Virus record (IMG/VR): IMGVR_UViG_3300031555_002904
Origin: a virus
Taxonomy: Duplodnaviria; Heunggongvirae; Uroviricota; Caudoviricetes
Length of the DNA: 64,000 nt
Reading direction: 5' to 3' (one strand)
The notes beneath the pieces are model-generated. The model saw only the letters and a list, made by a program, of their open reading frames with translations, was not told the DNA's origin and ran no database searches. Each line of letters opens with the position of its first letter. Position 1 is the first letter of the stretch. Shown here piece after piece: positions 1,005-60,361 of the stretch. The position numbers were made by a program, and so were the translations under genes.

Positions 1005-1034
1005 AAGACCCTATGGCAACCATAGGGTCTTTAT
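1005..1034 (+). terminator. rho-independent terminator
   Basis: Hairpin aagaccctatgg/caac/ccatagggtctt followed by a T run. Confidence 0.6.
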
Positions 1035-1062
1035 TGATTTTTTATAAAAAATATGTTATAAT
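1034..1062 (+). promoter_or_regulatory. conserved phage promoter P1 (TTGATT-17-TGTTATAAT)
   Basis: -35 TTGATT 1034-1039, 17 nt A/T spacer, extended -10 TG-n-TATAAT 1057-1062, then ATATATAG; first of about 18 near-identical copies. Confidence 0.7.
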
Positions 1063-1092
1063 ATATATAGAAAGTAAAGAGAGGAGAAAGTT

Positions 1093-1278
1093 ATGAATAA
1101 GTTTTATAGCGAGATTGATAAGGCTCTCCAATCTTACGAGAATTATAAGCCTTACCACACACGCAGTATTGAATGGATTTCCAATCGAATCTCTTGGTGT
1201 TGGAAATGGCGAAAAATCACAAAGGAACAGATGGAAGAACTCTGTGATAGAGTAATCAAAGTTTTAGAAGGGGATTGA
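1093..1278 (+). CDS. hypothetical protein
   Basis: RBS GAGAGGAGAAAG then ATG; 61 aa. Confidence 0.5.
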   Translation: MNKFYSEIDKALQSYENYKPYHTRSIEWISNRISWCWKWRKITKEQMEELCDRVIKVLEGD

Positions 1279-1282
1279 TACT

Positions 1283-1423
1283 ATGATTATTAAGTACATT
1301 TGGTGTACCAGCCGTTATGATAAGCATTATCGCAAGTGGCATGAACGAACCTGGAAGGGATGGTTCTTATTCGGTTTCATTCCTCTGTATGTTACTACTG
1401 TTGAGTATTTAATTAAAGGTTAA
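1283..1423 (+). CDS. hypothetical small protein (46 aa)
   Basis: ATG overlaps the upstream stop; fills the gap before 1437. Confidence 0.3.
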   Translation: MIIKYIWCTSRYDKHYRKWHERTWKGWFLFGFIPLYVTTVEYLIKG

Positions 1424-1436
1424 AGGAGGCGACATT

Positions 1437-56752: not shown

Positions 56753-56981
56753 ACGATATAAGGTAAAAAATATTTATACAACCAGAGCAATTTGTGATAA
56801 GTGCGGTGGGGAGTTAATCCCCACTGGCATTTGTCTCACTACTTATCCAGCACAATATCCTTATAAGTGTGAGAATCCCGATTGCGATGGTCATGCAACA
56901 TTCTGGGAGGGTGAACTTCCCGGCAAATTAGAATACGAATTTGAGGAGGAAGTTGACATATGTACAAAATTATTGCCTTAA
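56736..56981 (+). CDS. small zinc-ribbon protein
   Basis: CDKCGG...CENPDCDGH. Confidence 0.4.
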   Translation: MRKMLKRYKVKNIYTTRAICDKCGGELIPTGICLTTYPAQYPYKCENPDCDGHATFWEGELPGKLEYEFEEEVDICTKLLP

Positions 56982-57529
56982 TGGGCGAAGCTGGGTCTGG
57001 CAAAGACCGTACAATGTAGGCGGTAATAGAAGCCAACCCTGACCTCCATGAAATTATTAGCTGTACCACTCGCCCTATGCGCTAGGGTGAGGCACATGGT
57101 GTCAATTATTTTTATTATACTCCAGAAAAATTTGGATAGAAAGTTCTTGATGGAGAGATGCTAGAGTGTACCGTTTTCAACGACTGGTTCTATGGCACCA
57201 GCTATGACTCCGTCCGCAGCGATGGAGTAATCAATATTGGCGTATTCAATCCCACAGGCGTTGAGTCTCTCTTGGCTCGTCCGGATTGTGATGTAATTGT
57301 CTTTTGGATTCAAACCAATGACAAGATTCGTTTATTGCGCCAGTTAAACAGAGAAGAAGACCCTGACGTTAGAGAAGTTGTAAGACGTTTTTAGGCTGAT
57401 TACAATGATTTTGAAGATATTGATTTTAGTTATATCGGTCTTATCAACAATACTGAAGGCGACTTAGAAGACAACGTCAAGGAGATTTTGGTCCAGAGCG
57501 GACGCAGATTCGCTCAAGGACAAAAGTAA
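56960..57529 (+). CDS. gmk: guanylate kinase with 4 in-frame TAGs (57017, 57083, 57137, 57392)
   Basis: P-loop MGEAGSGKD; TTRPMR-[TAG]-GEAHGVNYFYY matches E. coli TTRQPRPGEVHGEHYFF; FYGTS. Stop is TAA 57527-57529. Confidence 0.75.
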
Positions 57530-57614
57530 TTAATTGATTAAGCACAAACACTATATTTAGTAAGAGGTTTTTTACGCCCACACAAAATATAGTTTTTTAA
57601 ATGGAGGTTTTATT

Positions 57615-59822
57615 ATGCATGTAATTAAGAGAGACGGCACTCGCGTTTTGTTTGACCCTAACAAGATTGTCCGTGCCATTAACAAAGCAATGGTCAGTGC
57701 ATATGGCTCCGTGTATGAATCCGACACTGCAGAGGAAATTGCAGATTTGATTGGTAGTCGCGGGGTCGATATGACTGTCGAACAAATTCAAGATTTAGTA
57801 GAAGGCTACTTAATGAAGAGTGAATATCCAGAAGTAGCCAAATCATATATTATTTATCGTGACCAGCGCAGTAAAGAGCGCACTCGTCGCAGTAAATTAA
57901 TCAAAGCAGTTATGAAGCGTATTGACGCTACTGCTGTTGAAAATGCAAATGCAAATGTTGATGAAAAGAGCTTCTCAGGTCGTGAGAAGGAAGCTTCTGC
58001 TGACATTCAGAAGATTATCGCTTTGGATTATACTTTATCTCCAGAAGTAGCTTCTGCTCACAAAGATATGCTATTATATCAGCATGATATGGAAAAGACA
58101 AATATTGGTGAACATAACTGTTTGTTTGTTGATTTTGGTAAAGTATTTAAAGATGGTTTCGTAACTCGTAACGGCGATATTCGTCCACCCGCATCTTACT
58201 CTACTGCTTGTCAGCAATATGCAGTTGTTTATCAGTGTCAGTCTCAGGTTCAGTTCGGCGGTGTTGGAACTGTTCACGCAGACTATGACTTAGCACCTTT
58301 TGTAGCCAAGAGCTTCCGTAAGCATATGCACAATTATCTAACTGATGTTGAAGGTCAGACTGATGAAAATGCAGATATTATTCTTGGTCAGCATGGTCCT
58401 ATCGTTATGGATAATCATAAGCTAAGAGAAGAGATGCCTGCGGCTTTCACCTATGCGTTGAAGCAGTTAGAGCGTGAGGGAACTCAAGCTTCTGAGGCTA
58501 TGTATCATAACTTAAATACTTTGGAGTCCCGTGCGGGCAGCCAGGTTCCTTTCACTTCTATTAACTTCGGTCGTGATACTTCTACTGAGGGTCGCTTTGT
58601 AAGTGAACATATGTTAAAGGCTTCTTTGGCTGGTATTGGTAAACATCACTTAACTCCTATTTTCCCAATTAGTATTTTCCAATATAAGCAGGGCTGCAAT
58701 GCTAATCCCGAAGACCCTAACTATGATTTAAAGAAATTAGCTATTGAGTCTTTGAGTAAGCGCATTTATCCTAACTTTGTCAATTGTGATTATTCTGAAG
58801 CACATGAAGATTTAAGTAATCCAGACACATATTTCGCAACTATGGGTTGCCGCACAATGCTTGGTTATGACAGACATAGTGATTCTTATAATCGTGTCGG
58901 TCGTGGAAACCTTGTTCCTGATACTATGATTTTGCCCAAATTAGGTATTGAATACGGAATTTGTTTAGGCAAGCGTGAGACCCCGGATTTAGACGGCTTC
59001 TGGTCTGCATTCGAGGATTTATTGATGCTTTGTGAGCAAGGTCTTTTGGAGCGTTTCGATATTATGGTTAATCAGCCACCCGAGGCCGCACCTTTTATGT
59101 ATCAGAATGGTACAATGAAGGATTCTCAAAGCTGCCGAGTATCTAACTATGAGGCTTTGAAGCATGGTACTTTGGCTATGGGTTATATTGGTATCGCAGA
59201 AATGTGTCAGGCTCTATTCGGCAAGAATCATGCTGAAGATGAGAATGTGCGCGAGTTCGCTTTGAAAGTTGTTAAGAGAATTAACGAATACGCTAAAGAA
59301 GCTTCTGAGCGCCATGACTTAAACTTCTCTTGCTATGCAACTCCCGCCGAAGGTTTATGTCATACCGCATTAAAGGCTTTGCGTCAGCAGTATGGTATTA
59401 TTCCTAATGTTACTGACCATGAGTTCTTAACCAATAGTCACCATGTTCCTGTATGGTATGAAATTGGTATCTTTGAGAAATTAGCTGTTGAGTCTCCTTT
59501 CTGTAAGTATCCTACTGGCGGATGCATTACTTATGTTGAATTAGATTCTACATTTGTAAAGAATACCAAGGCTATTGAGCAGATTATTGACTACGCATTT
59601 AAAGAACTAAATATTCCTTATTTAGCTTTTAATTTCCCAATCGACTCTTGTTTAGATTGCGGCTACCAGGGCGAGTTCAATGATGCTTGTCCCGAGTGCG
59701 GCAGTGAGAACATTCAACAGCTGCGTCGTGTTACTGGTTATTTAACTACTGACTATCATCATTTTAACAAAGGAAAACAGTCAGAGGTTGAACACCGCAT
59801 CAAACATAGTAAATTTAGTTAA
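57615..59822 (+). CDS. nrdD: anaerobic ribonucleoside-triphosphate reductase (class III)
   Basis: N-terminal ATP-cone VIKRDG; C-terminal zinc CLDCGY...CPECGS; glycyl-radical motif RRVTGYL. Confidence 0.85.
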   Translation: MHVIKRDGTRVLFDPNKIVRAINKAMVSAYGSVYESDTAEEIADLIGSRGVDMTVEQIQDLVEGYLMKSEYPEVAKSYIIYRDQRSKERTRRSKLIKAVMKRIDATAVENANANVDEKSFSGREKEASADIQKIIALDYTLSPEVASAHKDMLLYQHDMEKTNIGEHNCLFVDFGKVFKDGFVTRNGDIRPPASYSTACQQYAVVYQCQSQVQFGGVGTVHADYDLAPFVAKSFRKHMHNYLTDVEGQTDENADIILGQHGPIVMDNHKLREEMPAAFTYALKQLEREGTQASEAMYHNLNTLESRAGSQVPFTSINFGRDTSTEGRFVSEHMLKASLAGIGKHHLTPIFPISIFQYKQGCNANPEDPNYDLKKLAIESLSKRIYPNFVNCDYSEAHEDLSNPDTYFATMGCRTMLGYDRHSDSYNRVGRGNLVPDTMILPKLGIEYGICLGKRETPDLDGFWSAFEDLLMLCEQGLLERFDIMVNQPPEAAPFMYQNGTMKDSQSCRVSNYEALKHGTLAMGYIGIAEMCQALFGKNHAEDENVREFALKVVKRINEYAKEASERHDLNFSCYATPAEGLCHTALKALRQQYGIIPNVTDHEFLTNSHHVPVWYEIGIFEKLAVESPFCKYPTGGCITYVELDSTFVKNTKAIEQIIDYAFKELNIPYLAFNFPIDSCLDCGYQGEFNDACPECGSENIQQLRRVTGYLTTDYHHFNKGKQSEVEHRIKHSKFS

Positions 59823-59872
59823 TCGTAGCTAACTACAAGTTAGCTACGCTCATACGAAAGGAGTAAATTCCC

Positions 59873-60355
59873 TTGAATTATAGTGGTTTAATTTTAAATG
59901 ATATTTCTGCGGCCCCCGGTCTTTGTGTGAGCTTTTTTACACAAGGCTGTCCGCATAGATGTAAAGGCTGCCATAATCCAGAAACTTGGGATTTCAACCG
60001 AGGAAAAGAATTTACTACTGGGACTTTAAATGAGATTATTTCCGGACTGACCGCCCAGGGTATACAGAGAAATTTGTGTATCATGGGCGGTGAACCTCTT
60101 TGTGACGAAAATGCTTTCCTTACCTATTTGGTAGTCAAAGAGGTTAAAGAGAAAGTTCCAGGAGCAAAGATATATATCTGGAGTGGTTATACATATGAAC
60201 AACTACAACACGCAAGTCATCCTCAAGTGCGGCATGCGCTAGAGCTTGCGGATTACCTAATTGATGGTCCTTATATTGAAGAAGAGCGTGATATTACTCT
60301 TGAAATGAGAGGTTCACGTAATCAGAGAATAATTGACTTATCTAAAAAAAATTGA
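59873..60355 (+). CDS. nrdG: anaerobic RNR activating enzyme (radical SAM)
   Basis: TTG start after AAGGAG; FTQGCPHRCKGCHNPETW. Confidence 0.8.
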   Translation: MNYSGLILNDISAAPGLCVSFFTQGCPHRCKGCHNPETWDFNRGKEFTTGTLNEIISGLTAQGIQRNLCIMGGEPLCDENAFLTYLVVKEVKEKVPGAKIYIWSGYTYEQLQHASHPQVRHALELADYLIDGPYIEEERDITLEMRGSRNQRIIDLSKKN

Positions 60356-60361
60356 TATAAT
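60333..60361 (+). promoter_or_regulatory. promoter (TTGACT-17-TATAAT)
   Basis: TTGACT 60333-60338, TGATATAAT ending 60361, RBS AAGGAGAG. Confidence 0.5.

Follow-up and report, generated by a model that had tools for sequence, protein, structure and literature searches.

Phage SPO1 encodes strongly diverged sigma factors of its own (gp28 and gp33/34), which recognize different promoters. In T4-like phages, a composite element has been described as the promoter-early stem-loop (PeSL; Arbiol et al. 2010, PMC2839356; Comeau et al. 2014, PMC4122927). A survey of jumbo phages reports "more complete" sigmas near cellular RpoD in its group 2, whose members have no RNA polymerase of their own; the part of the survey used here suggests their acquisition from cells and gives no target promoters for them (Iyer et al. 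2021, PMC7824862). Here, we analyzed a 64,000-nucleotide stretch (the window) from an uncultivated TAG-recoded gut/rumen jumbo phage. About 18 promoter copies had been proposed in an earlier note on this DNA, and we found ~19 copies of a near-identical promoter among 20 perfect pattern matches.

The + strand carries 20 matches to the pattern TTGAYW-N17-TATAAT, or TTGA[CT][AT]-N17-TATAAT, and the - strand has none at the 17-nt spacing; the lone perfect - strand match, at 15141, has a 16-nt spacer. With up to one mismatch, TTGATT-N17-TATAAT is found 18 times, exclusively on the + strand, as compared to 1.36 expected (100 shuffles, highest count 5). The number, strand and position of the motif are far beyond chance expectation. 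The spacer is exactly 17 bp and the -10 element a perfect TATAAT in all 20 sites, 12 of which also have a TG one base 5' of the TATAAT. The tight copies (class A) match TTGACA at four of six -35 positions with TTGATT, and the looser copies (class B) at four to six with TTGACA, TTGACT or TTGATT. The sites are almost all intergenic (18–19 of 20) and co-oriented with the genes, followed by a Shine-Dalgarno sequence and a start codon ~20–75 nt 3'. The automatic distances of 237–335 nt at 14569, 41494 and 43906 reflect mis-called gene starts; when read by eye, the start codons lie 29 (ATG at 14626, from the -10 end), 45 and 35 nt downstream, respectively. A conserved purine 7 nt past TATAAT is the predicted +1. 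In their -35 likeness, 17 ± 1 bp spacer, TATAAT and co-oriented upstream placement, these sites have the features of sigma-70/sigma-A promoters, and the window showed no promoters of a second class. Frequent occurrence inside coding regions had been named as an observation that would speak against the motif; only one of the 20 matches (41022) lies inside a gene, that of DHFR, and it is probably a chance match.

The eight class A copies, which were all found where the earlier note had placed them, have ~36 nt in common, TTGATTTTTATAAAAAAATATGWTATAATATATATR:

1034–1069, + strand: P1, with -35 TTGATT, 17-nt T/A spacer, TATG-T-TATAAT, ATATAT discriminator and +1 A
3620–3655, + strand: P2, 5' of the sigma gene
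4843–4878, + strand: P3, 5' of an RNase T-like exonuclease gene
8525–8560, + strand: P4, without a hairpin, with TTG-TATAAT; left end of a movable vault-gene module
11143–11178, + strand: P5, 5' of an isochorismatase/nicotinamidase-like gene
14569–14604, + strand: P6
18736–18771, + strand: P7
20625–20660, + strand: P8, without a terminator-shaped hairpin

Each is followed by a start codon as had been described, although the distance from the -10 end ranges over 26–47 nt rather than the 25–40 nt given before. The ten or eleven class B copies are spread over 24480–61362. All ten that had been listed exist, one of them at a corrected coordinate, and two perfect matches had not been listed (61362 and 41022):

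24480–24508, + strand: class B, TTGACT-17-TATAAT
29888–29916, + strand: class B, 5' of gyrB; terminator at 29827–29856, 30 nt upstream
36085–36113, + strand: class B, perfect TTGACA-17-TATAAT, 5' of an NAD-dependent ligase gene
38131–38159, + strand: class B, TTGACA-17-TATAAT
38393–38421, + strand: class B, TTGACT, TG-extended -10
41494–41522, + strand: class B, TTGATT, TG-extended -10
43906–43934, + strand: class B, abutting terminator hairpin at 43880–43910, -19.2 kcal/mol
51209–51237, + strand: class B, previously written as 51219
52728–52756, + strand: class B, 5' of the DNA Pol III alpha gene
60333–60361, + strand: class B
61362–61390, + strand: possible extra promoter, TTGATA-17-TATAAT; ATG at 61411 only 21 nt on

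A hairpin had been reported before every tight copy. This holds for six of the eight (1034, 3620, 4843, 11143, 14569 and 18736), with folding energies of -15 to -23.5 kcal/mol, but not for 8525 and 20625:

1001–1035, + strand: hairpin at P1, 16 pairs, -23.5 kcal/mol; its U-tract is the -35 plus T-run
3588–3621, + strand: hairpin at P2, -20.8 kcal/mol; stem kept, with changed sequence, in two relatives (L005 and L010)
4818–4843, + strand: hairpin at P3, -16.9 kcal/mol
11117–11140, + strand: hairpin before P5, -18.7 kcal/mol
14540–14568, + strand: hairpin at P6, -19.7 kcal/mol
18713–18735, + strand: hairpin at P7, -15.1 kcal/mol

Just two class B copies have hairpins, 43906 (abutting) and 29888 (30 nt upstream), and the window thus contains seven composite promoter-hairpin copies, or eight with 29888. 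At the seven sites the hairpin ends 0–3 nt 5' of TTGATTTTT, and the stems, of 9–16 pairs, run directly into it as in an intrinsic terminator. Since the hairpin abuts the -35 directly, TTGATTTTT doubles as the predicted terminator U-tract and the -35 element, and the T-run after TTGA is likewise part of the U-tract. However, TTGATT is retained in hundreds of copies, including hairpin-less ones (8525, 20625 and most of those in lineage L190), and terminator overlap alone does not account for it.

Judged from sequence, the cassettes are probably strong early sigma-A-type promoter/terminator units of a large lytic phage, used by the host holoenzyme first and possibly by the phage sigma too. Each cassette would consist of a TTGATT -35, a spacer of 17 nt, a TATAAT extended by TATG, a discriminator rich in A and T and a purine at the start site, with a short purine-rich leader and Shine-Dalgarno site downstream. 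In most tight copies the promoter appears to be joined to the intrinsic terminator that ends the unit before it, with UUGAUUUUU serving as both U-tract and -35. By virtue of this fusion, each cassette would halt upstream transcription and restart it at a uniform high level, and the genes bounded by cassettes would become insulated, exchangeable units.

The genes behind class A copies encode a T7 gp5.9-like RecBCD inhibitor, the sigma factor, RNA ligase/Thg1/PNK and NAD+ salvage enzymes, which are typical early or counter-defence functions. Because the phage sigma and anti-defence genes lie behind cassettes, the host sigma-A holoenzyme presumably fires them at the onset of infection; the class A copy in front of the sigma gene must first be fired by something other than freshly synthesized phage sigma. 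The first 24 kb contain almost no TAG (as stop in 1 of 36, and nearly none in frame), which is consistent with an unmodified host translating the early genes. Genes after the first 24 kb have in-frame TAG, and the ORF at 43969–44628, behind the class B copy at 43906, is intact only with TAG as sense.

Conservation beyond the -35 and -10 hexamers, which the earlier note had pointed out, extends through the spacer, discriminator and start site across the phage clade. The core (29–36 nt) is retained even where sigma protein identity between relatives drops to 45–50%. It shows little or no change in L005, with coding DNA 78–87% identical, and is kept in L090, L187, L188 and L190 (sigma 50–51% identical) and in L191, L192 and L194 (sigma 46–49% identical). 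At orthologous sites the promoter differs by 0–4 of 36 nt, while the hairpins are wholly different or carry compensatory changes. Across many phage lineages, the core recurs in ~190 separate contexts with unrelated flanks; upstream structure of -10 kcal/mol or lower is present in 52% of these 190 class A family contexts, as compared to 4% of shuffled controls. Class A and class B copies also swap at orthologous positions, as before the Pol III alpha gene, where the place of the 52728 site is taken by an exact class A copy in 68%-identical relatives. The exact 29-mer is found in MAG contigs and in none of the isolate genomes; the contigs bearing the motif are labelled mostly Clostridia/Bacilli, and these labels are unreliable.

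The copies could be alike simply because they duplicated recently or belong to a small, spreading selfish repeat, and not all be selected working promoters. That they recombine and mark rearrangement breakpoints would fit such an origin. We nevertheless consider it very improbable, given that the ~190 contexts share a core within unrelated flanks, that the core stays constant where coding DNA falls to 65–70% identity and sigma to 45–50%, and that copies lie strictly on the coding strand, upstream of a Shine-Dalgarno sequence and a start codon that is no more than 80 nt away (median 33 nt) in 137 of the 190 contexts. On the preferred reading of early promoter/terminator units, near-identity would be upheld by recombination between copies and by selection acting over all of the DNA contacted by RNA polymerase, and the same recombination would relocate cassette-flanked genes in a PeSL-like manner. 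One module illustrates this:

8523–11195, + strand: promoter-flanked module with a vault (MVP shoulder)-like gene, placed differently among relatives

It sits at other cassette sites in L005, L031 and L063 and is missing from L015, and in these comparisons its breakpoints fall inside cassettes (8523/8525 and 11143/11195). At the remaining synteny breaks a cassette lies at or in the junction in 15 of 21, a raw count taken without a null model. The apparent recombination at cassettes is supported mainly by one clear module, the vault module.

The spacer raises a further alternative. In an unbiased set of 32 sites, from loci fetched via the sigma protein and not via the promoter, spacer positions are nearly as informative as the hexamers. 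The class A spacer, T5-A-T-A6, is a palindrome, and TTTTTATAAAAA and TTTTTTATAAAAAA, as read from class A sequences, are perfectly palindromic. A phage or host protein might bind the palindromic spacer TTTTTATAAAAA and/or ATATAT and switch all early units off, or on, at once; large lytic phages generally shut off their early genes in a coordinated manner. Nevertheless, no candidate regulator was found, recurring variants (TTTTTATTAAAAAA and TTTTTAATAAAAAA) disrupt the palindrome, and class B copies without it stand at equivalent positions, so that an operator seems quite unlikely. The TATG before TATAAT matches the Gram-positive -16 "TRTG"/extended -10 element, which is read by housekeeping holoenzymes. 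Spacer sequence is sensed by R451 of sigma70 (PMC3130263), and this residue is kept in the phage sigma. As T5-A-T-A6 is conserved beyond the known spacer preferences of housekeeping sigmas, an extra reader, either the phage sigma or a regulator, may be involved.

The phage sigma had been placed behind P2, and its ORF indeed begins 47 nt past the 3620 copy:

3695–4597, + strand: phage sigma factor, 300 aa, SigA/RpoD-like, with regions 1.2, 2, 3 and 4 and without region 1.1

The 300-aa protein scores above the Pfam cut-offs for Sigma70_r1_2, r2, r3 and r4 and aligns over 270 residues to SigA chains (E ~1e-80). However, the SigA match starts at SigA residue 95 or later, the NCBIfam RpoD score (329.9) lies below the cut-off of 572, and neither region 1.1 nor a full-length RpoD match of a group 1 (primary) sigma is present. 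By its domain content, the phage sigma is group-2-like in architecture. Q437, R451, E458, E585, R586, R588 and Q589, in what we take to be E. coli numbering, are kept. At specificity positions the sigma clade differs from bacterial SigA (W433 to Y/F, T440 to S, H455 to N and R584 to K). Among the 150 best cluster representatives, residues 583–584 are TR in 129 and [TS]K in 11, all of the latter being short proteins (276–342 aa). No homologue above ~52% identity was found in cultured GenBank phages, and the top matches resemble host SigA.

These substitutions bear on whether class A is tuned to the phage sigma as a dedicated pair, with the sigma either virion-borne or acting after a weak round of host-sigma transcription, and with the spacer, -35 variant and discriminator forming its specific recognition surface. 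TTGATTTTT-[A/T]-TATAAT is indeed present in every lineage fetched via the sigma (L005, L010, L049, L090, L187, L188, L190, L191, L192 and L194; 45–88% identity), the clade is distinct at W433, T440, H455 and R584, and isolate genomes lack the exact 29-mer. However, a co-variation test of sigma residue 584 against the -35 sequence across relatives was negative: TTGATT is kept in relatives with canonical R584 (P0183 in L191 and P0267 in L192/L193), so that an R584K-TTGATT link fails. The sigma of L190 has canonical W433, W434, T440, H455 and E458, yet its promoters have lost the TG. Given L191–L193 and this mismatch, promoter features do not track sigma residues. Since the sigma gene and immediate counter-defence genes also lie behind class A copies, and class A and class B exchange before the Pol III alpha gene, we regard a dedicated pair as unlikely. 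The "dedicated recognition mode" of the earlier note could not be demonstrated: much of the extra conservation falls in elements read by ordinary holoenzymes, and the residue 584 test was negative; no special link of the promoters to the phage's own sigma could be shown from these comparisons.

On the preferred reading, the phage sigma, which is close to canonical in the regions that read DNA, probably recognizes the same promoters later in infection, as a surrogate for host sigma-A. It is conceivable, though doubtful, that the region-1.1-less sigma and the invariant 29–36-nt promoter are co-inherited in a whole clade of TAG-recoded gut/rumen jumbo phages as a portable pair. If so, phage sigma and host core would run transcription after the first sigma, host-made or virion-delivered, and early/middle expression would be independent of the state or specificity of host sigma-A. 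This would apply, for example, in slow-growing or sporulating hosts, or after shut-off of host sigma-A by the phage.

The cassettes are real, but of a familiar phage regulatory kind. As in PeSLs, a repeated strong sigma-70-type early promoter is combined with a terminator stem-loop and followed by a Shine-Dalgarno sequence and start codon; the units cluster among accessory early genes, and copies are crossover points at which flanked genes are inserted, deleted or moved, here the vault module. The window thus has both a repeated promoter/stem-loop composite and copies at breakpoints between close relatives. However, this lineage, with its Firmicute-style signals, is unrelated to T4-like phages, and there is no sequence homology between T4-type PeSLs and the cassettes. 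The stem-loop here is always upstream and abuts the -35, so that the -35/T-run is the U-tract, whereas the phi1/RB49 stem-loop mostly overlaps the hexamers or falls between them, with an AT-rich region before the -35. The core is also far more uniform (29–36 nt) and persists across much deeper divergence. Because no nucleotide match to GenBank phages was found and the replication genes (Pol III alpha, DnaB, gyrase and NAD-dependent ligase) are not a T4-type set, we consider the cassettes a PeSL analogue rather than a member. The 300-aa sigma fits the "more complete" sigmas of jumbo phages as the cited part of that survey describes them (PMC7824862), while the clade here differs from that description in lacking region 1.1 and in its recurrent substitutions at W433, T440, H455 and R584. 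Finally, SPO1 likewise has clustered small early operons, each with a strong sigma-A promoter and strong ribosome-binding site, which the host holoenzyme transcribes before phage sigmas take over, as proposed here; unlike those of SPO1, the sigma of this phage is nearly canonical and SigA-like.

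The motif TTGATT-N17-TATAAT, searched with at most one mismatch, gave 18 matches in the window, all on the plus strand, against a mean of 1.36 and a maximum of 5 in dinucleotide-preserving shuffles. When the -35 was relaxed to TTGA[CT][AT], 20 perfect sites with the 17-nt spacer were found on the plus strand and 0 on the minus strand. The eight near-identical copies of the earlier note (class A; 1034, 3620, 4843, 8525, 11143, 14569, 18736 and 20625) are present and share about 36 nt, TTGATTTTT(A/T)3AAAAAATATG(A/T)TATAATATATAT(A/G). Its ten looser copies (class B; 24480 to 60333) were all found as well, with the position 51219 corrected to 51209. 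Two perfect matches were absent from that list: the one at 61362, 21 nt upstream of an ATG, may be a promoter, and the one at 41022, within the DHFR gene, is probably a chance match. Frequent occurrence inside coding regions was not seen, the intragenic perfect copy being that at 41022. The TATG preceding TATAAT matches the Gram-positive -16 "TRTG"/extended -10 element, reportedly described by Voskuil and Chambliss in 1998.

All promoter sites lie on the coding strand, every real gene of the window being on the plus strand; downstream of each come a leader rich in purines, a Shine-Dalgarno site and the start codon. The distance from the -10 to the start codon is 26–47 nt in class A, and a purine is conserved 7 nt downstream of the -10, at the position predicted for a transcription start. 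Hairpins of 9–16 pairs (-15 to -23.5 kcal/mol) at 1034, 3620, 4843, 11143, 14569, 18736 and 43906 end 0–3 nt before TTGATTTTT, and therefore the -35 and its T-run could double as the U-tract of an intrinsic terminator. At 29888, the terminator lies 30 nt upstream. The claim that a hairpin terminator precedes each tight copy thus holds for six of the eight, 8525 and 20625 being without such an upstream hairpin. Because these two and most copies in L190, a locus from a related phage contig, retain TTGATTTTT without hairpins, terminator overlap is insufficient as its sole cause. The cassettes are not RNA genes, since neither tRNA genes nor Rfam families were found in the window. The earlier note is right in what it observed and largely right in its reading: judged from sequence, the copies are promoters, many of them in terminator-promoter cassettes.

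Related loci were collected with a 35-mer (at least 84 IMG/VR stretches) and a 29-mer (94 stretches of gut or rumen MAGs). Among the 293 distinct contexts of the pooled loci, 190 differ from the 36-nt consensus at no more than 6 positions and have essentially unique flanks; this pool is biased, because it was fetched through the promoter itself. A control set was therefore taken from loci fetched via sigma homologues only (L005, L090, L187, L188 and L190; 32 sites). Its consensus is TTGATTTTTaatAAAAAaTATgaTATAAT-AtaTaTatAA, in which the spacer is nearly as informative as the hexamers. The same promoter occurs in L191, L192 and L194, whose sigmas are 46–49% identical. At orthologous sites the promoter had changed at 0–4 of 36 nt, the upstream hairpin had been replaced or altered by compensatory substitutions, and the downstream coding DNA was 68–88% identical. 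Recent duplication does not account for this constancy, which points to purifying selection, homogenisation, or both.

In the distant relatives L190 (3645, 7755, 7943, 9231, 11262 and 11545) and L191 (3782–3982), several promoter copies have no following ORF. Their leaders begin ...AAAGACAGCAA, able to pair with a downstream TTGCTGTCTT, and could represent structured small RNAs or the leaders of tRNA arrays. The leader motif "AAGACAGCAA" from these two loci was not above chance in the window.

The phage does encode a sigma factor, of 300 aa with regions 1.2–4. Among solved structures, SigA chains of 368–390 aa match it best (E about 1e-80). The alignment begins at residue 95 or later of these chains, so that region 1.1 is missing from the phage protein; against the RpoD models it scores 330, under the cut-offs of 555–572. 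Non-canonical residues, which recur across the phage clade, are W433Y, T440S, H455N and R584K (E. coli numbering). At residues 583–584, the best 150 cluster representatives have TR in 129 cases and [TS]K in 11, and the 11 are all short sigmas. Since genetic studies reportedly assign R584 to the reading of -31, K584 (R in bacterial SigA) was tested as the cause of T at that position; relatives with R584 (L191, L192/L193) retain TTGATT. Nor does the TG-extended -10 track residues 455/458: L190 has H..E without TG, and the window has N..E with TG. The other DNA-reading residues are mostly canonical, including R451, which in E. coli sigma-70 senses the spacer (PMC3130263). With both tests negative, the dedicated recognition mode suggested in the earlier note was not borne out. 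The depth of the spacer and TTGATT conservation is nevertheless unusual and only partly explained, and for this reason we keep open, as an unlikely reading, that the phage sigma and its promoter travel as a portable pair.

A sigma so close to SigA should, judged from its sequence, read TTGAnn/TATAAT promoters, and those of the window are the cassettes only; the phage sigma thus plausibly uses them. A different motif for it was sought in the promoter-less intergenic gaps of the window and none was evident; many of these "gaps" are genes with in-frame TAG. Class A copies precede both the sigma gene itself and the immediate counter-defence genes, and the candidates for the first round of transcription are therefore the host holoenzyme or a putative injected sigma.

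Cultured relatives were sought through the sigma protein: the best matches reached at most 52% identity, with no close homologue in cultured phage, and resemble host SigA sequences from contaminated records. RpoD-like sigmas of jumbo phages have already been described (PMC7824862). A megablast of positions 1–20000 against GenBank phages gave no match, and the sigma protein is present on metagenomic contigs of up to 406 kb. The related locus L049 encodes at 2183–2983 another type of sigma, with 45% identity to that of the window. An exact class A promoter immediately precedes it, while the surrounding genes are otherwise unrelated; such genomes may carry it as a paralogue at another place, or it may come from a different phage lineage sharing the promoter.

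The gene content of the window is as follows.

1–24 kb: Thg1-like; sigma; T7 gp5.9-like RecBCD inhibitor; RNase T-like exonuclease; RNA ligase; vault-like protein; NAD+ salvage block; PNK-like pair; SPFH/flotillin
2408–3214, 6427–7845 and 21093–22222 (early region): RNA-repair-type genes, namely Thg1-like, RNA ligase, and PNK-like kinase plus phosphoesterase
4599–4832: T7 gp5.9 RecBCD-inhibitor family protein, 77 aa, 1 nt downstream of the sigma gene
8588–11104, plus strand: vault-like protein, 838 aa, with Major Vault Protein shoulder and repeat domains
11197–19690: contiguous NAD+ salvage/utilisation genes, namely nicotinamidase-like, PRPP-synthetase-like, YqeY, SIR2, NAMPT, NAD synthase, NADAR, AAA_28 kinase-like and NMNAT-like
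24–64 kb: PhoH; multi-domain lysin; GyrB, GyrA; NAD-dependent ligase; ThyA; DHFR; DnaB; RecJ-like; SF1 helicase; Pol III alpha; guanylate kinase; NrdD; RuvC-like
38825–39817, 41000–41497, 43969–44628, 48025–49770, 56960–57529, 62198–62683 and 63300–63899: ORFs with in-frame TAG

The NAD+ block matches the description of "NAD-jumbo phage" (PMC11662467) and plausibly counters NAD+-depleting defence systems, while the RNA-repair-type set suggests mending of tRNA cut by host anticodon nucleases. The T7 gp5.9 family also occurs, at another position, in the distant relative L090.

On the evidence of the reading frames, this phage uses TAG as a sense codon, probably for Gln (code 15). With TAG as Gln, full-length GIY-YIG, DHFR, RecJ/DHH, guanylate kinase and RuvC matches span the in-frame TAGs, and the coding density of 56–64 kb rises from 0.76 to 0.91. 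ORF lists made with table 11 split the TAG-containing ORFs, giving false "intergenic" gaps. No suppressor tRNA was found in the window. In 1–24 kb, hardly any TAG occurs, whether terminating a gene or within a reading frame. This agrees with the published model (bioRxiv 10.1101/2021.08.26.457843) in which the early genes of recoded phages stay translatable by an unmodified host, and it supports an early role of the class A region. The G+C content is 0.42–0.47 in 1–24 kb (except 0.36 in the 18–20 kb bin) and 0.35–0.42 in 24–64 kb (except 0.44 in the 42–44 kb bin); the drop at about 24000 coincides with the switch from class A to class B and with the first in-frame TAGs.

The vault-like gene, whose GenBank phage matches are 462–735 kb "huge phage" records only (39–41% identity), is bounded in the window by the copies at 8525 and 11143. 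The related locus L005 has those two flanks joined via one cassette; its vault gene, which retains a cassette on either side, lies upstream of the region matching the window start. Homology between the window and L005 breaks at 8523 and 11195, within cassettes. The gene occupies other positions again in L031 and L063 and is absent from L015. It is a movable, cassette-flanked module, and 8525 lacks a hairpin because it is the left junction of the inserted module. By a raw count, made without a proper null model, a cassette lies at or in the junction at 15 of 21 synteny breaks. Elsewhere, gyrB and gyrA adjoin in L137 and are separated in the window by about 1.6 kb of small ORFs (31856–33441); in L084 and L171 the Pol III alpha and DnaB genes are interrupted by about 1.1–1.2 kb of extra sequence, absent from the window and perhaps representing introns or inteins.

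Shine-Dalgarno strength and the -35/-10 type suggest a Bacillota host. The MAG labels of the 29-mer contigs are mostly Clostridia/Bacilli, with Treponema, Bacteroidales, Methanobrevibacter and Saccharibacteria, and are noisy, the phage contigs being mis-binned. Loci L093–L172 are GTDB MAG contigs of 100–176 kb with many promoter copies. The MAGs that hold them bear names such as Acutalibacteraceae, Bacilli, Treponema, Alistipes, Methanobrevibacter and Saccharibacteria, among others, and the contigs are evidently phage contaminants.

Taken together, the cassettes are most likely host-fired, strong sigma-A-type early promoter/terminator units. They would insulate and equalise early transcription units and serve as linkers in modular gene shuffling, their uniformity being kept by selection plus recombination, with the phage sigma as a probable secondary reader. 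Were the phage sigma instead the preferred reader, it would offer a clean natural case of a phage-borne housekeeping-type sigma with a matched promoter. The promoter set gives a sequence-defined map of early units in a family of recoded jumbo phages that is abundant and uncultivated, on which RecBCD inhibitor, RNA repair, NAD+ reconstitution and sigma factor would be switched on first. Its 29-nt core is a cheap, specific probe for these phages and their mis-binned MAG contigs. Among known systems, the nearest counterparts are the arrays of early promoters in SPO1-like phages (PMC6873191) and the promoter-early stem-loops (PeSLs) of T4-like phages (PMC2839356, PMC4122927). The latter show the same cassette-recombination behaviour and are analogues, not homologues, of the window cassettes. 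The view of promoter-terminator cassettes as recombination linkers is extended here from T4-like phages of Gram-negatives to an unrelated lineage with Firmicute-type signals.
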